This document shows positions 2,977 through 60,786 of a stretch of DNA of 64,000 nucleotides, piece by piece. Numbering within the stretch: the stretch's first letter is position 1; the number at the start of each line of letters is the position of its first letter. The notes below the pieces were generated by a model. That model made no database searches and was not told where the DNA came from. It saw only the letters and a list, made by a program, of their open reading frames with translations. The position numbers and the translations under genes were made by a program. Source of the stretch: an uncultured Bacteroidales bacterium (GTDB taxonomy: Bacteria > Bacteroidota > Bacteroidia > Bacteroidales > Paludibacteraceae); assembly GCA_902765485.1 (NCBI GenBank), contig CACWZZ010000016.1:41991-105990 (forward strand), written 5' to 3'.

Positions 2977-4719
2977 CTACCACTTTTTCTGGCGGAAGAG
3001 GCCGCCGAGGAGGGAAAGGATAAGGTAGAAAGGATAGAGGAGCTCTAACAAGAGAGCCACGTACCACGCGGTGCGTGGTTCTTTATTTGTGGGTTGTGGT
3101 TGGTGGTTTGTAGTTTCTCTTTTGCGGATAAGACCGTACTCGATCGGGAATTTAATGAGGAGGACGAGGGGGCAGAGGAGTTGGAGAATGTTGGCTGCCA
3201 CGACCAGTGCGCCGCAACGGAGGATGTCCGGGTCGGTGTATTTAGGGGCTTTGCCTGCCCAGCGCATTCTCTGGCGGAAGAAAGCCTTCCACGTGGGAAC
3301 AGGACGAACGACGGCGGTGTAGTCGGGTTCGTCAATGACCGCTATCTTCATGCCTCGACGTTTCATGGCTTCCAAGAGGAACATATCGTCGCCGGACGGG
3401 ATCTCGGGATGCAGGTCGGGTTCGCATTCCAACCATGCTTCCCTGCGCACAATGAGGTTCGCGCCGGAACACATGACGGCATGACCACGTTTGGCAGTAC
3501 GCATGGTCAGTTCCTGTATGGCGGCGTATTCGGCTATTTGTAATTTTTCCAACAAGGAAGGGCTATCGCTTTCGCTCACCATCTTAAGTGGCAGAATTAC
3601 AAGATCGCTTTCAGGTCTGATCAAGACCTCGTGCCAGATGACATCGTCATCGTGGAGCCAGACGTATTCCGTTTGGGCGGCGTGGATGAGTTTGGAGAGG
3701 GCATGTTTCTTGCCCAAATTGTCATCATTGACGCCCCGGATCGGGGTAATATGGGTAACAAACCCGTCTGTAATGTCCGTAGTGGTCACGAAGTGGTCGC
3801 GGTATCGACTGCTAACCAAGTGCCAGAATTCTACAAACCGGGGGTAACTTTTGGCGATACATTCCTGTTCGGATTCAGATACGGGAAAATCTGCAGCCAT
3901 GAGTGCCATCGCCATTCGGTGGTCGGAGCGCACTTCGTGCTTTTGCACCGCCTCGATTCGGTCGGATTCTTTGAACCGCAAGCGCTCTGTGCCGGTGGCT
4001 TGGAGGGTTATGCCGAGGCGTTCGCAGGTCAGCGCGATCGCCGGATATAAATCAGGGCAGTTGGTAAACCCCACCCTAATCCTCCCCTCAAGGGGAGGGG
4101 AAAAGAGGGAGGGAGTTTTGGCTATGCGTGCTCCTTCGGGGGTGAAGGTTGTTTGGACGCCGAAATGGGCGGCGTAGAGGTCGGCTACTATGCGGTCGCC
4201 TTGGAGGCTGTCGGGTTTGAGTCCCTCTAACAGCAACTCGCCGCCATGGATGGCGATGTATTCGTACCAGAAGGCGGCGGAGGACCAGCATGGCTCTATA
4301 TCATCAGCCATGCATGGCTGATACATGGAGACCATGCGGCGGCTCATCGTGATATAGGGAGATTCGTTTTCGGCAACGGGGATATCTTCGCCGTGCAAGA
4401 TAAGAGCAGAAGTGGTTTGGGTTGTGGGTGCCCCTTTGCGCTCCATGAGCCGCGGGTCACCGGTAAGCGTGATCGGTGCGCCCGGGTAACATTTCTGCAG
4501 ATGAACTTCCAGAAAACGAAGGGCGGTACCATTATTCTTCAAATACAGCGTTAACGGCTCACCTTTCTTATACTCCCTCAACTGCTCCAACGCATCGTGG
4601 AGGACGATGACGTCATCCGGCATATCGCGAGAGACCCTCATCAGAGGGTCCCCGTGAATTGCCTGCAATAGAAGAATTCTATTGGCGATGGATTTCGATA
4701 TCGGAAGTTTAATTGACAT
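2977..4719 (-). CDS. EPSP-synthase-like domain (shortened) fused to an N-terminally short family-2 glycosyltransferase with C-terminal TM helices
   Basis: EPSPS motifs: LPISKSIANRILL, GTALRFL, KESDR, DHRMAMAL, KSYPRF. Then GT2 motifs: LHDDDV, GANLIVRR, QRMRWA. Start uncertain (4719 or 4794); the part of the ORF-track model above 4719 overlaps the upstream gene. Confidence 0.6.
   Translation of the reverse strand: MSIKLPISKSIANRILLLQAIHGDPLMRVSRDMPDDVIVLHDALEQLREYKKGEPLTLYLKNNGTALRFLEVHLQKCYPGAPITLTGDPRLMERKGAPTTQTTSALILHGEDIPVAENESPYITMSRRMVSMYQPCMADDIEPCWSSAAFWYEYIAIHGGELLLEGLKPDSLQGDRIVADLYAAHFGVQTTFTPEGARIAKTPSLFSPPLEGRIRVGFTNCPDLYPAIALTCERLGITLQATGTERLRFKESDRIEAVQKHEVRSDHRMAMALMAADFPVSESEQECIAKSYPRFVEFWHLVSSRYRDHFVTTTDITDGFVTHITPIRGVNDDNLGKKHALSKLIHAAQTEYVWLHDDDVIWHEVLIRPESDLVILPLKMVSESDSPSLLEKLQIAEYAAIQELTMRTAKRGHAVMCSGANLIVRREAWLECEPDLHPEIPSGDDMFLLEAMKRRGMKIAVIDEPDYTAVVRPVPTWKAFFRQRMRWAGKAPKYTDPDILRCGALVVAANILQLLCPLVLLIKFPIEYGLIRKRETTNHQPQPTNKEPRTAWYVALLLELLYPFYLILSLLGGLFRQKKW
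4068..4116. repeat. GC-rich hairpin mini-element, copy a (in-frame in a CDS)
   Basis: CCTCCCC-TCAA-GGGGAGG stem-loop at 4081-4098 with C-rich/G-rich flanks; encodes SPPLEGR. Confidence 0.6.
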
Positions 4720-6715
4720 CCGGCAGCGGACTGTAGTCGTGGCTGTAACGGAGATGTTGCTCGATATAGCCTTCCGTGAAATCGATCTTAACATCCGTGA
4801 TATTGCCCTCGGCATCGCGAACGGCAGTATAAACCGGATTGACGAAACCCTTGTACGGCGCAAGATTGAGTTTCTTATAGCGCTCCAGGATCTCTTTATG
4901 CAGGTCCTGGTCCACCTTAACCGCATATTTCTCCACGATCGCTTTGGCAGCAGGATAATCGCCTTCGGAGGTGATGCGCTGGATCTCAGCCAGCAGTTCG
5001 CCATAGAGGCGACGCAGCCCTTCGTAGTCGTTGATTTGCAGATAGTGCTTGCCGTCGCGCTCGATAATCTCCACCTCTTTGTTGGTCGCATGATCATAGA
5101 CCCATCCGGCGATCAGTTGGCGGTTGCGCATGTGCGCTTCCTCAATATCTTTACCCGGTTCGATACGCACAAGTTGGGTCATCAGACCGTTCATCATCTG
5201 CTGGTAATAACCGGCTTTGTACGCCTCCATATTGGGCAGCAGACCGAGTTCCACGAGTTTGGGATCCGCCAAATAATAGAGCCCGAAGAGGTCCGCGCGC
5301 GCTTCCTCGATCGTCGAAGCGTGCTCCTTGAGTGCATCCTTGGTCACACCTGGCAACAGCTTGCCGGAACCGTGTCCGACGCACTCATGGAGGTCCGTAT
5401 GGAGGTCACCGCAGGCCGCTCCGTACTGCTCATAGATAGCGCGGATCTCGTCGTCAATCATGAACTCCTCGTTGAAACCGTTACCCTTCGCAGCCTCGTT
5501 GTACGCGTGCATGAGGTTGTCAATGGTGACGGATTTGGAGCCGTACTCCTTGCGAATCCAGTTGGCGTTCGGCAGGTTGATGCCGATCGGCGTAGCGGGA
5601 TAGCAGTCTCCGGCAAGGATAGCCGCGGTAATAACCTTTGCGGTCACACCTTTGACTTCCTCTTTTTTGTATTTGGGATCGGTGGTCGAGTGGTCCTCAA
5701 ACCACTGCGCGTTGGAGGAGATGAGTTGGGTGCGCTTGGTAGCCGCAAGGTCCTTGAAGTTAACCATGGACTCCCATGTGCCGGTGATTCCGAGCGGGTC
5801 GGTGTACGTCTCCGTAAAACCGTTGACGTAGTCCACGCGGCTGTCGAGGTCGCGCACCCACGCGATACAATATTCATTGAAAGTCTTGAGGTCACCCGTT
5901 TCGTTGAACTCAATCATTTTCTCGATTGCCAGTTTCTGGGCGTCGTTTTCGGCATACTTCAGCGCTTCACGGAGCCAATAAACGATGTGTTCGAGCGCTT
6001 CTCCATAGAGACCACCCACTTTATAAACCTGCTCCTCGATCTCGCCGTTTGCGTTCTTGACAAGTTTGGAGTTCAGACCGATCCAGAGCGGCTCAGAGCT
6101 GTTGTCCTTATGAAGGGCATACCACTCCTCGGCTTCCGCTTGGGTCACGCCTTCGCCGTAGTAGTTGCCGGCAGAGTTGAGCACCAGATCCACGCCGTCC
6201 TGCGCGGTAGTGCGCTTCGCCATGATAGCCGGGTCGAACATCACCGGCAGGATCGCCTCATCGTATTGCACACCCGCTTTCTCGCAAGCGGCAACGAACC
6301 ACTCCTGGCTGAACTCCGGCAGGAACTTATCCTCGGAATAATGATGGTGAATACCATTGGAGAACCAGACGCGCTTGAGGTAACGCTCGAAGGCGGCGAA
6401 CTCGTCCGTATTCTTATCATACGGATAGTTCACATACAGGTTCTCCAACGCACGACGGATACGGAGATTGTAGCGTCCGTTCTGGTCAAACAAGATATCG
6501 CGTCCCCATAGAGCCGCTTCACTCAAGCAATAGATGAGCTGCTTCTGCTGCAGACTCAACGAATCGAACTCCGGCACGTCATAGCGCAGGATCTCCAGGT
6601 CATAAAACTTATCCACGTTGTATTGGAAGGAGGTTGTTTCTTTCGGCTGGCAAGCGGTGAACGCAAGAGACAAAAGAATGAATAATGAATAATGATTAAT
6701 TGATAATTTTTTCAT
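4709..6715 (-). CDS. peptidase family M49 (dipeptidyl-peptidase III-like) lipoprotein
   Basis: HECVGHGSGK plus EEARAD zinc motifs; MKKLSINHYSLFILLSLAFTAC lipobox from the ATG at 6715. Confidence 0.85.
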   Translation of the reverse strand: MKKLSINHYSLFILLSLAFTACQPKETTSFQYNVDKFYDLEILRYDVPEFDSLSLQQKQLIYCLSEAALWGRDILFDQNGRYNLRIRRALENLYVNYPYDKNTDEFAAFERYLKRVWFSNGIHHHYSEDKFLPEFSQEWFVAACEKAGVQYDEAILPVMFDPAIMAKRTTAQDGVDLVLNSAGNYYGEGVTQAEAEEWYALHKDNSSEPLWIGLNSKLVKNANGEIEEQVYKVGGLYGEALEHIVYWLREALKYAENDAQKLAIEKMIEFNETGDLKTFNEYCIAWVRDLDSRVDYVNGFTETYTDPLGITGTWESMVNFKDLAATKRTQLISSNAQWFEDHSTTDPKYKKEEVKGVTAKVITAAILAGDCYPATPIGINLPNANWIRKEYGSKSVTIDNLMHAYNEAAKGNGFNEEFMIDDEIRAIYEQYGAACGDLHTDLHECVGHGSGKLLPGVTKDALKEHASTIEEARADLFGLYYLADPKLVELGLLPNMEAYKAGYYQQMMNGLMTQLVRIEPGKDIEEAHMRNRQLIAGWVYDHATNKEVEIIERDGKHYLQINDYEGLRRLYGELLAEIQRITSEGDYPAAKAIVEKYAVKVDQDLHKEILERYKKLNLAPYKGFVNPVYTAVRDAEGNITDVKIDFTEGYIEQHLRYSHDYSPLPDVN

Positions 6716-6737
6716 ATCTCTAAATATAAATTGTGTG

Positions 6738-6745
6738 CAAAGATA
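6738..6745 (-). promoter_or_regulatory. -7 promoter box (TATCTTTG on minus strand)
   Basis: TAnnTTTG match 23 nt upstream of the M49 peptidase start. Confidence 0.55.
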
Positions 6746-6754
6746 CAACAAATA

Positions 6755-6786
6755 ATTCAAAATTCAAAATTCAAAAGTTCAAAATT
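6755..6786. repeat. tandem 7-mer word array (ATTCAAA x3-4)
   Basis: Read directly; lies just upstream of the -7 box of the M49 peptidase gene. Confidence 0.7.
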
Positions 6787-14119: not shown

Positions 14120-14335
14120 TATAAACAATAGTGATTGCTTCATCCGGTTCGCACTCTATTCCGCGAGAGTGATATGAACAGGGGAAAGCGGCATGTCTTC
14201 TGACTTGTCTCGTCCGTTAACGCCTTCTCGCCGACGCATCGGCAATGGCATGTTGGTTAAGGGACTGCGATTGAGACTTACAGCAGCGGGTCTGTACAGG
14301 ATTTACACCTGTTTCCATCTTAGCTTATGCGCGCA
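14120..14335 (-). promoter_or_regulatory. cobalamin (B12) riboswitch
   Basis: Minus-strand RNA contains GGAAACAGGTGTAAATCCTGTACAGACCCGCTGCTGTAA ... GCCATTG ... GAAGGC ... AGTCAGAAGACATGCC (B12 box). Lies in the 5' leader of the 2065-aa gene; aptamer ends are approximate. Confidence 0.85.
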
Positions 14336-14389
14336 TTTAAGCGCCATAAGAACCGTTTTCCTTTAGGGCATCCGTGTGGAGGTTCGGAA

Positions 14390-22528: not shown

Positions 22529-23278
22529 TTATTTGGGCGTGACCATAATGGATAGTTCGTATAGCAGATAGAGCGGAATAGTGACGAGCATGAGCGTGAA
22601 CGCGTCGCCAGTAGGAGTGATGACTGCCGCGAGGATCATGAGTGTCACGAGTGCATGACGGCGGTATTGTTTGAGCCATGCGGCTTCCAGCAGTCCCGCT
22701 TTGCCCAGCGCCCATGCTACCATCGGCATCTCAAAAAGAATACCCATCAGCAGCGAAAGGATCAACAGCGTGGAGACATAGGAGTCCAGTGCAATCTGGT
22801 TCACTACCTCCGGCTGCACTTGGTATGTAGCCAGAAAACGGAAGGCGAAAGGAAAGATGACCAGATAGTTGAGTGCCACGCCGCAGAGGAAAAGCACCGT
22901 GCCGAAACCGATGATTCGTCCCGCTGCGCGTTTCTCATGAGGGTATAGCGCCGGAGAGAGGAAACCGTATAGTTGCCATAGCAGAAACGGAAAAGCAATC
23001 ACCAGACCTGCCAGCGCCGCCACCTGCATGTGAACCGTGAACTGGGCGGCTAATTGAGTGTTGATGAAGGAGACCAAAACCTCTCCCCAACCCTCCCCAC
23101 AAGGGAGGGAGCATAGCAAGCGATACGTGATAAAATCCGGATGGGCAGGAGCAAATAGAAAAGCAAAGAGTGCATCGCGGAAGCAGAACGCCGCTACCGC
23201 ACAGATACCCCACGCCACTACGCAACGGATTAACACACTGCGCAGTTCGTCCAGATGATCCCAAAACGATTCAGCCAT
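22529..23278 (-). CDS. tatC: twin-arginine translocase subunit TatC
   Basis: FWDHLDELR start, six-TM layout, SPALYPHEKR motif. Confidence 0.85.
   Translation of the reverse strand: MAESFWDHLDELRSVLIRCVVAWGICAVAAFCFRDALFAFLFAPAHPDFITYRLLCSLPCGEGWGEVLVSFINTQLAAQFTVHMQVAALAGLVIAFPFLLWQLYGFLSPALYPHEKRAAGRIIGFGTVLFLCGVALNYLVIFPFAFRFLATYQVQPEVVNQIALDSYVSTLLILSLLMGILFEMPMVAWALGKAGLLEAAWLKQYRRHALVTLMILAAVITPTGDAFTLMLVTIPLYLLYELSIMVTPK
23078..23111. repeat. GC-rich hairpin mini-element, copy b (in-frame in tatC)
   Basis: AACCTCTCCCCAACCCTCCCCACAAGGGAGGGAG; 31/34 identical to the reverse complement of 60421-60454. Confidence 0.8.
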
Positions 23279-23493: not shown

Positions 23494-24912
23494 TTATGAA
23501 TTGGCTTGTCGTAGTTGATCTACAAAGCGGTCGATGCGCTGCATCTCATGGGGGATGTCAATACGTTGCGGGCAGTGGGAGACGCAATGGTCGCAACCGA
23601 TACAATGATCCGCCTGACGGACGGATGGCACGGCGCGGTCATAGCCCACAAGGAAGGCACGGCGGTTGCGTTGGAACTCATTGGACGGACCGTCCGCAGC
23701 CGGCATCGTACCCTCCGCGATACACTTGTTATAGTGTGCAAAGATACCCGGTATATTCAGTCCGTACGGGCAGGGCATGCAATAGTTGCAGGCGGTGCAA
23801 GGGATGGCTTTCAGTTCGTAGATATCTCTGGCGAGCGTAAGAATCCACTGCTCTTCTTCCGCTGTGAGGGGAACCAAAGGCGAATAGGTTGAGACATTTT
23901 CTTTGAGGTGCTCCAGATAGGTCATACCGGAGAGGACGGTCAGTACGCCTTCGGGGTTGCCGGCAAAGCGGAACGCCCACGCGGCAGGCGAATAACGGCT
24001 GTCTTTCTCGCGCATCTTGGCGGTGATTGCGTCCGGCTGTTTGGCAAGACGACCACCTAACAGCGGCTCCATGATCACCACCGGAATACCGCGTTTGTGC
24101 AACTCCGCATAGAGGTAATCCGCATCGGTGTTGCGCTGGTTGATCTCGTTGGCGTAGTGCCAATCGAGGTAGTTCATTTCAATCTGCACGAAGTCCCAAT
24201 GGTACTTGCCTTCGTCGTGCCACTGAAGGAGGGTGTCGAAGACCTTCACATCACCGTGGTACGAGAAACCGAGATTGCGGATGCGCCCTTTCGCTTTCTG
24301 CTCCACCAGCCAATCAAGCATACCGTTCTCCATATACCTTCCGTAGAAAGCACCCATGCCGTCTCTGCCGCCTCCGCTCATGCCTATACCATGTAGCAAG
24401 AGGTAGTCCACGTAGTCGGTTTGCAGGTATTGGAGCGAACGCTCGAACATCGCTTTGGACTCCTTGGAGGACCATGTGTCGGGCGAGAAATTGGATAGTT
24501 TGGTAGCAATGAAATAGCTGTTCCGCGGATGGCGCGCAAGGGCAATACCGGTGCTCTGCTCCGAGAGACCCTGGCAGTACGCAGGCGAGGTGTCGAAATA
24601 ATTGACACCATGCGCGAGGGCGTAATCCACCATCTCATTCACCGCCTCCTGGTCAATCGGGGAATCGGGGTTCTCGCGCGCCGTGCCGCCTGCCTGAACC
24701 GGCAGACGCATCATACCGAAACCGAGTATCGACACGCGGTCACCCGTGTTGGGATTGACGCGTAAAGTCATGGAAGCCCCCTCCGTCTCCCCCACGAGGG
24801 GGAGAGATGCGTTTCGTTGTTCATTATTCTTGCAGGCGGTTGCCAGAACCGATGTAGCCGCTACGGCTGCTGCGCTATGTTTGATAAATTCTCTTCTGTC
24901 CATAATGATCAA
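23494..24912 (-). CDS. aldo/keto reductase with C-terminal 4Fe-4S domain, Tat signal and lipobox
   Basis: MDRREFIKHSAAAVAATSVLATAC twin-arginine signal; AKR core; CTACNYCMPC and CIGCDHCVSHC clusters. Confidence 0.8.
   Translation of the reverse strand: MIIMDRREFIKHSAAAVAATSVLATACKNNEQRNASLPLVGETEGASMTLRVNPNTGDRVSILGFGMMRLPVQAGGTARENPDSPIDQEAVNEMVDYALAHGVNYFDTSPAYCQGLSEQSTGIALARHPRNSYFIATKLSNFSPDTWSSKESKAMFERSLQYLQTDYVDYLLLHGIGMSGGGRDGMGAFYGRYMENGMLDWLVEQKAKGRIRNLGFSYHGDVKVFDTLLQWHDEGKYHWDFVQIEMNYLDWHYANEINQRNTDADYLYAELHKRGIPVVIMEPLLGGRLAKQPDAITAKMREKDSRYSPAAWAFRFAGNPEGVLTVLSGMTYLEHLKENVSTYSPLVPLTAEEEQWILTLARDIYELKAIPCTACNYCMPCPYGLNIPGIFAHYNKCIAEGTMPAADGPSNEFQRNRRAFLVGYDRAVPSVRQADHCIGCDHCVSHCPQRIDIPHEMQRIDRFVDQLRQANS
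24775..24806. repeat. GC-rich hairpin mini-element, copy c (in-frame in the AKR gene)
   Basis: TCTCCCCC-ACGA-GGGGGAGA stem-loop at 24785-24804; encodes LPLVGETEG just after the lipobox. Confidence 0.55.
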
Positions 24913-38173: not shown

Positions 38174-38204
38174 TCTCCGTCTATTAGCCCCGAATTTTAT
38201 TCGG
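38174..38204. repeat. REP-like hairpin element, copy 1 (contains the stop codon of the Y1 gene)
   Basis: CTCCGTCTATTAGC + CCCGAAT-TTT-ATTCGGG. Confidence 0.7.
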
Positions 38205-39231
38205 GTTTGTTCAAAGCCTCGCATATTTCCTCTGCCATTTTATTCATCGCCACACACTCGGCTCTGGTCACATGCGGCTTGTCCGGATCATGCTGCCACG
38301 GCGATAGTATCAACATCCTTCCCTCTGCGACCGCCTCAAACAATCCCTCTGCAGGTTTGTAATACTCGCCAAATCCATTCTCCGCGATATAAATAATGGT
38401 ATGTTTCTCGCGCAGCAACACCTCCAATACCTCTTTCTCTTTCGGACTAATGAACGGCGACACCATCACAGTCCCTTTACGAGCCGCCAGCACACATCCG
38501 TTCATATACTCGCGTAGCCGTGTCGCGTCTCCATGCTGCTCAGCATCTTCCACCCAAATCCTCCGCACATGTACCGGCGAGAACTTCTCTGCCTGCAAAA
38601 TGCCTATATTCCCAATTCCGCTATATTTCTGTCCCGCTATCTCTATATCTCGCTGCACTCTGAAATATCCCGGCATCAACCTTTTCGTTGCTAACCTCTG
38701 CGGGTTCATCTGCACATAGCGGATCATCGTTTGTAGTTGTCCCTTGTGTGACATTGGACGCACAAACGGGCGCTCCGTGAAGATCGGAAATGGGAGGCCT
38801 CCATTCCCTTCTCTCGCATTATTTGCCATTCCCTCTCCGTCCATTAGCCCCGAATTTAATTCGGGATAAATCAACGGAGAATATGCCCGTCCTATTTTCT
38901 TAACGCCCTGCCACAAACTGCGGATTACATTATTTATACTTTGTGTCATCGGCTTGGTGACATAGTATATTACATGCAAGTGATCGGGCATCAAACAATG
39001 CTGTATTACCTTTATCTCCGGATAGTAATGATTGATGCGTAATGCTTCTTCTGTTATCCGGTCCCCAAGTTCTGTCCTTTCCACCGCCGCTTGTTTCGGA
39101 TCATTCTCCGGAATGACAAGCCTCCCCAACAAAGCCTCTCTGCTTGGCACAACCAGCGTAACATGGTAAATGCCGACACCTCTCCATGCCGTTCCCATTT
39201 CTTGCCATTTCCATGTCTCCTGTTCTGCCAT
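38197..39231 (-). CDS. RayT/IS200-like Y1 (HUH) transposase domain fused to a DprA/SLOG-like C-terminal domain
   Basis: HUH motif PDHLHVIYY; Y-motif IRYVQMNPQR. C-terminus aligns by eye to the DprA core (GNIGILQ, VHVRR, GTVMVSPF, TIIYIAENGF, GRMLILSP). Confidence 0.65.
   Translation of the reverse strand: MAEQETWKWQEMGTAWRGVGIYHVTLVVPSREALLGRLVIPENDPKQAAVERTELGDRITEEALRINHYYPEIKVIQHCLMPDHLHVIYYVTKPMTQSINNVIRSLWQGVKKIGRAYSPLIYPELNSGLMDGEGMANNAREGNGGLPFPIFTERPFVRPMSHKGQLQTMIRYVQMNPQRLATKRLMPGYFRVQRDIEIAGQKYSGIGNIGILQAEKFSPVHVRRIWVEDAEQHGDATRLREYMNGCVLAARKGTVMVSPFISPKEKEVLEVLLREKHTIIYIAENGFGEYYKPAEGLFEAVAEGRMLILSPWQHDPDKPHVTRAECVAMNKMAEEICEALNKPE
38835..38865. repeat. REP-like hairpin element, copy 2 (in-frame inside the Y1 gene)
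   Basis: CTCCGTCCATTAGC + CCCGAAT-TTA-ATTCGGG; encodes YPELNSGLMDGE. Confidence 0.7.
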
Positions 39232-39251
39232 TTTCTTTTAGTTTTCGAGTG

Positions 39252-39316
39252 GGGGTACAATTTGTACCCCTCGTCAATCTGTGCTTTTTTCTTAAGGTTG
39301 GGGACAAATTGTCCCC
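39252..39316. repeat. two related perfect palindromes upstream of the Y1 gene
   Basis: GGGGTACAA-T-TTGTACCCC (39252-39270) and GGGGACAA-A-TTGTCCCC (39300-39316). Confidence 0.8.
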
Positions 39317-39380
39317 TGGTCAGTTGGGTAGTAGTACTTAACCACTTCTGTTCCGTTTTTCATTGTTTTTTCTCTACTAC

Positions 39381-45010: not shown

Positions 45011-45045
45011 CCCCGCTCACCCCTCGTTTTGAGAGGCAAGCGGGG
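45011..45045 (-). terminator. nested GC-rich stem-loop after uxaC
   Basis: CCCCGCT...AGCGGGG with inner CCTC-GTTTT-GAGG; resembles the in-CDS hairpin family. Confidence 0.45.
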
Positions 45046-59940: not shown

Positions 59941-59968
59941 AACTTTCAACTTTCAACTTTCAACTCTC
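59941..59968. repeat. 4 x 7-bp tandem word array (AACTTTC), plus an isolated copy at 59916-59922
   Basis: Contains the stop and last codons (VES*) of the NlpC/P60 gene; lies upstream of the Sir2 start. Confidence 0.85.
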
Positions 59969-60786
59969 CTAATTGCTACTAAATGATGCGAATATGACCC
60001 CGTCTCAGCGTTAAAAATACCGTTGAAATCGAGCTTTTCTACTTTCACGCGCCCAGAGCAATGGATCACCCGCTCGCTATCTATCGCAACCCCCACATGG
60101 CTGATTTTTCCATCCTCATGATCGAAGAAAACCAAATCACCTGCCTTCACATGCTTGAGATCGGAAATCTTCCTGCCTTGCGTTGCTTGCTCACTTGCAT
60201 TACGCTTCAACTCCTTGCCGAAAAGACTCATGACGACCTGCGTAAACCCGGAGCAGTCCATTCCCATCGCATTCTTGCCGCCCCACAGATACGGAATATT
60301 GAGAAAGAAACGTACTGCCTGAAGCAGATTTTGTTCGTTCAAATCGAGACTTTTTGCTATTACCATACCGGGATCGATACGAAAACCGACACCCAGCACT
60401 TCAAACCGCCCGATCTTTATCTCCCTCCCTTGAGCGGAGGGCTGGGGAGAGGTTATAGTATACTTCGCGAGCCTTGTTCCGGCGGTCAGAGGAATGGTCT
60501 GTCCGTTGTTCTCACTCACGGCGTACACCATCGGCATTGCCACTATAGCGGAGGAACCGGTATATGCCTCGTGATAAGACTTATACTCCGCTGGAGACAT
60601 CTTCGTTACCATCTTGGCATCGACCCATCCTTCCTGTCCGTCAATGTGCAATTTCACCCGATTCCATCGGTCTTTTTCTTCCAGCACATCGAATGTCTCG
60701 CCGAACAGAATCTGGGTATTCTGCTCCGCTCCCTCGCTTGCCTCCGCCCGCACAGGAATGACACTATATAACGAAATCGCCTTCAA
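59953..60786 (-). CDS. NlpC/P60 (C40) peptidase with N-terminal SH3-like domains
   Basis: GMDCSGF catalytic Cys, HVGV His; apparent TTG start. Confidence 0.8.
   Translation of the reverse strand: MKAISLYSVIPVRAEASEGAEQNTQILFGETFDVLEEKDRWNRVKLHIDGQEGWVDAKMVTKMSPAEYKSYHEAYTGSSAIVAMPMVYAVSENNGQTIPLTAGTRLAKYTITSPQPSAQGREIKIGRFEVLGVGFRIDPGMVIAKSLDLNEQNLLQAVRFFLNIPYLWGGKNAMGMDCSGFTQVVMSLFGKELKRNASEQATQGRKISDLKHVKAGDLVFFDHEDGKISHVGVAIDSERVIHCSGRVKVEKLDFNGIFNAETGSYSHHLVAIRRVES
60421..60454. repeat. GC-rich hairpin mini-element, copy d (in-frame in the NlpC/P60 gene)
   Basis: Reverse complement AACCTCTCCCCAGCCCTCCGCTCAAGGGAGGGAG is 31/34 identical to 23078-23111; encodes TSPQPSAQGRE. Confidence 0.8.

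Follow-up and report, generated by a model that had tools for sequence, protein, structure and literature searches.

A BoxC/PIT/TMECO-class repeat, probably selfish, resides in frame inside genes of an uncultured Paludibacteraceae bacterium

We analysed a window of 64,000 nucleotides (nt) from the metagenome-assembled genome (MAG) of an uncultured Paludibacteraceae bacterium, here called G000 (window G000:C16:41991-105990), in which a short C-rich hairpin repeat lies inside four protein genes. These four are members of a genome-wide family that belongs to the BoxC/PIT/TMECO class of intrastrand-triplex repeats. The three-block design of the sequence was therefore already known, and what is new for this class is its residence in frame inside genes. 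Our best explanation, to which we assign a probability of about 0.7, is that the hairpins are selfish repeats of this class, which survive in tolerant loops of the host proteins and are ends or relatives of a cassette that encodes a DUF559 nuclease. The G000 assembly comprises 2.12 Mb in 41 contigs, has a GC content of 49.5% and is 83% complete, and the relatives used for the comparisons are rumen and hindgut Paludibacteraceae/Bacteroidales MAGs.

Counting the copies by nhmmer as non-overlapping matches, we found 114 of them in G000, well above chance, in the genome-wide search that a preliminary description of the four hairpins had named as a check. Hairpins with a polypyrimidine arm numbered 141, compared with 15 in a reversed-genome control. 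Furthermore, there were 95 three-block triplex candidates (class II, with blocks of 7 nt), compared with none in each of three shuffled genomes, and the second loop was 3 nt long in 70 of the 95. The repeat is about 36-38 nt long and is divided into about eight subfamilies in G000, its consensus on the C-rich strand being AA-CCCC(A/T)CCC-CGA-CCCTCCC-CTCAA-GGGAGGG-AG. On the G-rich strand the order is a C-rich stem of 7-8 nt, a loop of 4-5 nt, the G-rich stem, a linker of 3 nt and, last, another G-rich block, the mirror image of the stem. The sequence of the linker is variable (CGA, CGG, CGT, CGC, CAA, CTG, CAG and others).

Regarding the architecture, the elements had been described at first as a C-rich arm plus a hairpin. 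The hairpin stands, but that description did not recognise the arm as a mirror of the stem with which it covaries. With a linker length of 3, a T or an A in the arm mirrors 109 of the 145 non-C stem positions, whereas other offsets give between 14 and 37. A direct-repeat relation of the arm to the stem was also tried and rejected (47 of 145 positions, against 109 for the mirror). At least six asymmetric stem types, namely CCCTCTC, CCTCCCC, CTCCCCC, TCCCCCC, CTCTCCC and CCCCTCC, occur with the matching mirror arm in G000 and its relatives, and the mutual information falls on the mirror diagonal. The hairpin is 98.4% paired, with five of its seven pairs changed on both sides. The four positions of the third strand that were tested all show changes on both sides (37 cells), and none of 500 shuffles reaches the observed value. 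These covariation statistics are inflated because the copies are related; the independent subfamilies are the real evidence.

The triples read on the C strand are C.C-G, T.T-A and A.T-A, which correspond to G.G-C, A.A-T and T.A-T on the G strand, that is, to the complete set of triples of the antiparallel purine motif. This covariation, together with the published circular dichroism (CD) and nuclear magnetic resonance (NMR) data on the relative of the repeat in E. coli, suggests that the repeat folds as a triplex. The folding energies that we computed refer to the hairpin only, as they come from a nearest-neighbour folding tool without a triplex model. A G-quadruplex was considered as the conserved feature and rejected, because subfamilies with a T near the end of the block still obey the mirror rule; the canonical G-quadruplex motif is present in only 28 of the 114 copies.

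The preliminary description took the sequence family to be undescribed. This is not the case, since both its architecture and its sequence match the BoxC/PIT/TMECO repeats of E. coli, for which Holder et al. (2015, PMC4666352) give the pattern CCCTCNCCC-N3-6-GGGNGAGGG-N3-GGGNGAGGG with blocks of 9 nt, following earlier work by Bachellier (1990s) and by Hoyne & Maher (2000), as cited there. TMECO was proven by CD and NMR to be a class II purine-motif intrastrand triplex with a melting temperature of 70-82 °C, and it has been reported in 262 proteobacterial genomes (PMC4666352). According to the same source, the 23 TMECO copies of E. coli K-12 are 'always located intergenically', they have no associated transposase and they are linked to local genomic variability or instability. 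In 3,648 E. coli genomes a G000 copy has matches that extend over 32-34 nt at 88% identity. Among them is CCCTCACCCCGACCCTCTCCCACAGGGAGAGGGAG, located in the ilvC-ppiC spacer, which keeps this identity along 34 nt and has both the CGA linker and the AG tail in common with the G000 copy.

The likeness extends to the order of the blocks, the lengths of the loops (3-6 and 3 nt) and the types of triples. Moreover, in both cases the repeat is about 37 nt long, occurs in both orientations and sometimes in inverted pairs of two different types, has no transposase nearby and sits at loci that are unusually variable between close relatives. Nevertheless, there are differences. The blocks are of 9 nt in E. 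coli and of 7-8 nt in G000, the host is here a Bacteroidota MAG and not one of the Proteobacteria, and the density is about 54 copies per Mb in G000 versus about 5 per Mb in E. coli K-12. The E. coli copies are intergenic, whereas 47% of the G000 copies are located deep in coding sequence, in frame. Finally, in the relatives of G000 the repeats bracket a DUF559 gene.

A covariance model (R1), built from the genome-wide copies and then run on the window, found exactly four members, with E-values from 1e-6 to 9e-12 (Table 1, copies A to D). They are the same four elements that had been reported inside long open reading frames (ORFs), and the frames are kept, as had been claimed, with the peptides SPPLEGR, LPCGEGWGEV, LPLVGETEG and SPQPSAQGRE correctly read. 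It also held that copy B matches the reverse complement of copy D at 31 of 34 positions, and that the orientations of the two copies relative to their hosts, both on the minus strand, are opposite. A fifth hairpin, downstream of uxaC (45011-45045, plus strand), had been proposed as the terminator of that gene and a relative of the family. We rejected it as a family member, because it is an unrelated GC hairpin with the stem CCCCGCT…AGCGGGG, and R1 gives it 7 bits only (E=4.2).

As for the suggestion that these segments are insertions compared with the orthologues, it proved right for copy D, which is a clean insertion of 42 nt (14 amino acids) relative to the orthologues of G005, G064 and G035 (about 70% identity), but not for copies A, B and C, which add no net length compared with distant relatives. 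In none of the orthologue alignments did we find the same peptides encoded by unrelated DNA.

Copy A is composed of the blocks AACCCCACCCT / AAT / CCTCCCC-TCAA-GGGGAGG and ends in an extra G-rich tail, GGAAAAGAGGGAGGGAG, which in the computed fold is able to pair back with the first arm; it also gives an overlapping weak R1 match on the minus strand. Its C-rich strand is the plus strand, so that the minus-strand host has the G-rich strand as sense. In the orthologue alignment it sits in a loop of very variable length of the EPSPS-like/glycosyltransferase host. The copy is common to G104, G043 and G274, and G377 has a differently arranged copy of equal total length at the same site.

Regarding copy B, the third-strand block CCTCTCCC (23080-23087) is followed by the linker CAA (23088-23090), the hairpin CCCTCCC (23091-23097), CACAA (loop, 23098-23102) and GGGAGGG (23103-23109), and the tail AG. 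The fold energy of the hairpin is -8.1 kcal/mol (z=-3.4). The copy encodes LPCGEGWGEV in the first variable loop of TatC, which varies in length and sequence among 22 orthologues and is not longer in G000 than in most of them. It is kept in G104 and G377, with the changes confined to the loop of the repeat.

Copy C represents the subfamily GCCCCCTC / CGT / CTCCCCC-ACGA-GGGGGAG; the asymmetric CTCCCCC/GGGGGAG subfamily carries the third block GGAGGGGG. Copy C lies in the linker that joins the signal peptide and lipobox (…ATACKNN) of the aldo/keto reductase to the mature domain (MTLRVNPNTGDRVS…), and this linker has a similar length and an unrelated sequence in every species of the orthologue alignment. 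G104 and G377 have the copy in common with G000, and in G397 and G274 there are tandem CATTTGGT/CATTTACC repeats at the site.

Copy D has the C-rich strand as the sense strand of its host. Read on the plus strand, it consists of CCCTCCC (60423-60429), the loop TTGAG (60430-60434), CGGAGGG (60435-60441, with one stem mismatch), the linker CTG (60442-60444) and the third block GGGAGAGG (60445-60452). The copy is common to G397, G043 and G274 (79% identity), and the site holds other sequence in G279 and in the closest relatives, G104 and G377 (87-88% identity). In an AlphaFold model of the NlpC/P60 host with a mean pLDDT (predicted local distance difference test) of 88, the residues of the copy (about 113-124) form a coil with a local pLDDT of about 72 between the strands 110-112 and 125-130, so in this model copy D appears to occupy a surface loop. 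At the orthologous site of G397 (L110) the loop of the repeat is inverted, TTGAG for CTCAA, and both stems and the mirror arm are kept, which suggests that a hairpin or cruciform forms in vivo.

How the 114 copies are placed relative to genes was read from our own crude ORF finder, and because of this the cases in N-terminal positions are uncertain. We defined as deep in an ORF those copies lying more than 50 amino acids from its start and more than 30 from its end, and 54 copies were in this group (random expectation 66%). A further 19 copies were within 50 amino acids of the ORF start (11% expected), 10 were within 30 amino acids of the ORF end (7%), 12 overlapped an ORF boundary (4%) and 19 were intergenic (12%). 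In 53 of the 54 deep copies the frame of the host outranked the other five coding frames on either flank. The sense strand of the deep copies is the G-rich one in 31 cases and the C-rich one in 23, and all six combinations of orientation and frame occur. An explanation by a conserved protein motif was therefore rejected; because all six combinations are used, the repeats are elements at the DNA level.

Five of the six frames of the repeat are free of stop codons. The sixth has a TGA in the TTGAG loop, and this frame is used only by subfamilies with other loops. The differences in length between filled and unfilled sites in genes were 75, 24, 21, 15, 42, 42, 54, 33, 9, 0, -3, -3 and -9 nt, that is, multiples of three in all the 13 cases read; one intergenic case measured 55 nt. 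Judging from the intact frames, the copies are probably translated as loops rich in Pro, Gly, Ser and Glu, and an example of a junction peptide encoded at the insertion of a copy is YTITSPQPSAQGREIKIGR.

In order to follow the copies between sister species, about 27 sites of G000 were compared with the syntenic DNA. G377 (85-93% identity) shares 9 of the 27 and has no copy at the other 18. In G104 (88-97% identity) 13 of 21 sites have the same copy, five have a different subfamily at the same site and three have none. The relatives also carry copies that are missing from G000. Among the 100 genomes of the genus surveyed, 80 have matches, very unevenly distributed, from 0 up to at least 65 per genome, and matches are sparse in the rest of the phylum.

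In sister species, exactly these in-gene sites may hold unrelated short repeats instead, namely ACCAAGTAC-like heptamer runs, CAGCGGTCTTACAG-like runs and the CATTTGGT/CATTTACC 8-mers. The latter are tandems that appear as DQMVN repeats in the aldo/keto reductase linker, in the orthologues of window positions 24772-24810.

One could argue from these sites that no mobile element exists and that they are hypervariable indel hot spots, where C/G-rich DNA arises by slippage and is homogenised by gene conversion. Quite different short repeats (ACCAAGTAC-type, CAGCGGTCTTACAG-type and 8-mer tandems) do replace one another at the same places, there is no target-site duplication and the net length differences are irregular. 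However, slippage yields direct repeats and not a hairpin with a mirror arm and a fixed linker of 3 nt, and about 114 copies with shared ends and a shared loop motif face none in the shuffled genomes. There are also near-identical copies in E. coli, and a nuclease gene lies enclosed by paired repeats, its empty sites being clean. We consider this explanation very improbable.

The uneven distribution also bears on a second alternative, according to which the repeats are structural DNA signals of benefit to the host (recombination or replication pause sites, supercoiling sinks, G-quadruplex switches) that are kept by selection, the genic copies being a side effect. It would agree with the strong conservation of the three-block design across subfamilies and species, with the copies held at the same site, stems intact, in species that are only 75-80% identical, and with the relation that Holder et al. 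draw between such motifs and local genomic variability (PMC4666352). Nevertheless, a range from 0 to at least 65 copies within one genus, the 18 sites of 27 without a copy in a sister species as close as G377, the lack of any rule of orientation or position relative to genes and the low number of canonical G-quadruplex motifs given above all speak against it. Moreover, earlier work found neither promoter nor terminator activity in the E. coli relatives (PMC4666352). This alternative thus seems unlikely to us.

The cassette was found in related genomes. A DUF559 gene is present in 33 of the 100 genomes of the genus, and at 11 of 25 DUF559 loci an ORF of 125-126 amino acids lies between two inward-facing repeats of different subfamilies, within about 100 nt; six further loci of the 25 have a repeat on one side. 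The complete cassette of about 0.48 kb, formed by a repeat, the DUF559 gene of 125 amino acids and an inverted repeat, occurs in G064, G050, G078 and G043, and in G000 the two clean empty sites are located where a murD-like gene and murG begin. The cassette replaces the start codon of one or the other gene and supplies a new ATG. In G064, G050 and G043 the right-hand repeat is in frame and constitutes the new N-terminus of the MurD-like and MurG proteins.

Across the genus, the median number of repeats is 8 in DUF559-positive genomes versus 2 in the others, and 7 of the 9 high-copy genomes are DUF559-positive versus 18 of the 91 others, both counts ignoring the relatedness of the genomes. DUF559 belongs to a Vsr-like PD-(D/E)XK clade that also holds a group I intron homing endonuclease (PMC3424549). 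Our literature search found no paper connecting DUF559 with BoxC-type repeats. From these associations we consider it possible, at somewhat less than even odds, that the DUF559 nuclease mobilises or converts the repeats.

The mechanism that we propose would be as follows. The G-rich single strand would fold as a hairpin, with the third block lying antiparallel in the major groove and forming triples. The repeat would behave as selfish DNA that is gained, lost and swapped between sister species, and the in-gene copies would persist in tolerant surface loops or linkers as long as the host gene changes in net length by a multiple of three. Most likely, the repeats are the ends, and non-autonomous relatives, of the cassette of about 0.48 kb. 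A more specific version, which we put forward only tentatively, is that BoxC/PIT/TMECO repeats come from a minimal mobile cassette that encodes nothing but the DUF559 nuclease, either as its recognition ends or as solo derivatives of it. The hairpin-plus-triplex fold of the DNA would be what this nuclease recognises, setting off a homing-like repair. Such repair would explain the different subfamilies, and also the unrelated repeats, found at the same sites. The element may have evolved for read-through, being free of stops and supplying a start codon, and this would permit its life inside genes and tight operons.

Several observations weigh against the selfish, cassette-derived origin of the repeats. 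Neither a target-site duplication nor a common target motif was present at the filled/empty pairs examined, and there is no fixed insertion length, as filled and unfilled sites differ by -9 to +75 nt; therefore a simple cut-and-paste insertion is not demonstrated. Several copies, including A, B and C, are common to species that are 75-95% identical, which indicates that many copies are old and vertically inherited, not recently mobile. Regarding the enzyme, the test of association between DUF559 and the repeats ignores the relatedness of the genomes, and G068 and G081 are high-copy genomes without a good DUF559. Furthermore, neither profile search nor tblastn with the proteins of the relatives detected a DUF559 gene or remnant in G000, which is 83% complete. 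As for the known class, the strict TMECO pattern of 9-nt blocks has no match in G000, where the blocks are of 7-8 nt, so the similarity to E. coli could be due to convergence on a triplex-capable design and not to common descent. That the version with 7-nt blocks folds as a triplex is something that we infer, and for TMECO itself the fold could not be shown in vivo by dimethyl sulphate footprinting (PMC4666352).

Other known systems were also compared. The REP/REPIN elements (Di Nocera et al. 2013, PMC3733652) are likewise short GC-rich stem-loops, in high copy, species-specific and often arranged as inverted pairs, and genic REPs have been described in other species (PMC3733652). One may ask whether our repeats belong to the REP/REPIN type and owe their mobility to a RAYT-like HUH tyrosine transposase. 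The candidate gene lies at 38197-39231 on the window's minus strand and encodes a RAYT-like and DprA-like protein of 344 amino acids that has HUH-like and Y motifs and weakly matches the REP-associated tyrosine transposase family NF047646 (E=6e-4, 19.8 bits); it is one of three paralogues in G000, at about 57% identity. However, the score is far below the cut-off of 80 bits, the gene has no Pfam match and PF01797 has no match in G000. The RAYT-like genes go with a different hairpin, CCCCGAAT-N4-ATTCGGGG, of which there are eight copies genome-wide, two of them at 38183-38210 (the 3' end of the gene) and at 38845-38870 (inside it), and no RAYT-like gene is flanked by the C-rich repeats. Because their linker is variable, the repeats of G000 lack the constant GTAG or CGTC tag, CGTC being present in a minority of copies, and the definition of REPs includes no covarying third block. 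We regard this origin as improbable, slightly more so than the host signals. Two AT-centred palindromes, GGGGTACAAATTGTACCCC and GGGGACAAATTGTCCCC, were seen just upstream of the RAYT-like gene (window 39240-39320).

The comparison with Rickettsia palindromic elements (RPEs), proposed in the preliminary description, is borne out as far as behaviour is concerned. Like them, the repeat is palindromic and lies in frame in many unrelated and apparently functional protein genes, here in both orientations. RPEs have a large intragenic fraction, probably lie in tolerant surface regions and have no known transposase (Ogata et al. 2000; summaries in PMC10969869 and PMC3733652). However, RPEs are 100-150 bp long and encode a family-specific conserved peptide in one frame, whereas the repeat of G000 has about 36 nt and uses the six combinations. 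It also has the mirror third arm, and no sequence similarity was found in the RPEs tested.

Miniature inverted-repeat transposable elements derive from a longer partner that ends in inverted copies of the same repeats and encodes a DNA-cutting enzyme. Here a candidate for such a partner is in the relatives and not in G000, and the role of the enzyme is putative; the examined filled and empty sites differ from theirs in lacking target-site duplications. The mobile GC clusters of yeast mitochondria are also short, GC-rich and palindromic, have spread in their genome and occur in frame in var1, but they are organellar, belong to another sequence family and have no triplex-type third arm.

Table 1. 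Location of the repeat copies, their host genes and the related sites. Positions are those of the window, except where a contig (C) or locus (L) is named.
Feature	Position	Strand	Evidence or remark
Copy A, repeat	4065..4119	+	R1 match 4065-4105(+), 34.5 bits, E=1e-6
Host of copy A, EPSP-synthase-like domain fused to family-2 glycosyltransferase	2977..4716	-	PF00275 E=8e-20, PF13641 E=2e-15
Copy B, repeat	23076..23115	+	R1 55.6 bits, E=9e-12
Host of copy B, tatC	22529..23278	-	ORF list
Copy C, repeat	24772..24810	+	R1 33.6 bits, E=2e-6
Host of copy C, Tat-signal aldo/keto reductase with C-terminal Fe-S domain	23494..24912	-	ORF list
Copy D, repeat	60417..60456	-	R1 51.6 bits, E=8e-11
Host of copy D, SH3 + NlpC/P60 peptidase	59953..60786	-	PF00877 E=3e-21 + SH3 domains
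Empty cassette sites in G000, outside the window	C5:41783-41794 and C5:44393-44397		compared with L355, L356, L358, L360
Sites with other short repeats	L108/L109; G377 at C3:82927, C3:83314; G274/G397 at C7:83160, C7:86620, C9:53022		L108/L109 correspond to site D
Copies with nested insert in G000	C7:86966, C9:86710, C9:56524, C11:53386, C13:82263, C14:5431, C19:3705, C22:3587, C24:14281		

In nine copies of G000 the third block is separated from the G-rich stem by a nested insert of about 50 nt (GAAGAGCTCTGCTCGATCGGACTGCCGGTGGCCGTCCGTAGAAC…), which was found within orthologous copies of G104 and G274 as well. The insert may be a further small element that has the repeat as its target, or a BIME-like mosaic.

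Regarding the annotation of the host of copy A, the listed ORF 2977-5097 (minus strand, 706 amino acids) is over-extended at its 5' end, because relatives carry stop codons within residues 1-126; the real gene starts near residue 127. Its first 126 codons or so run over the peptidase gene upstream (4709-6760) and show no conservation as coding sequence. The EPSPS-like and glycosyltransferase parts form a single ORF in G000 and G010 and are separate genes in G003 and G015. No Rfam family matches the repeat elements; the sole Rfam match in the window is a cobalamin riboswitch at 14173-14372 on the minus strand (RF00174, 99 bits).

About half of the roughly 114 copies would be translated as segments of housekeeping proteins, among them TatC and the MurD/MurG relatives. 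Therefore, the repeat would continually give rise to new protein loops and to differences in length among sister species, and it explains odd Pro/Gly-rich inserts and N-terminal extensions in the proteins of rumen Bacteroidales MAGs. To our knowledge, the BoxC/PIT/TMECO repeats, which are widespread, have been without a known origin for about 30 years, and the bracketing of DUF559 genes by these repeats, together with the clean empty sites, provides a concrete candidate for the missing mobilising enzyme.

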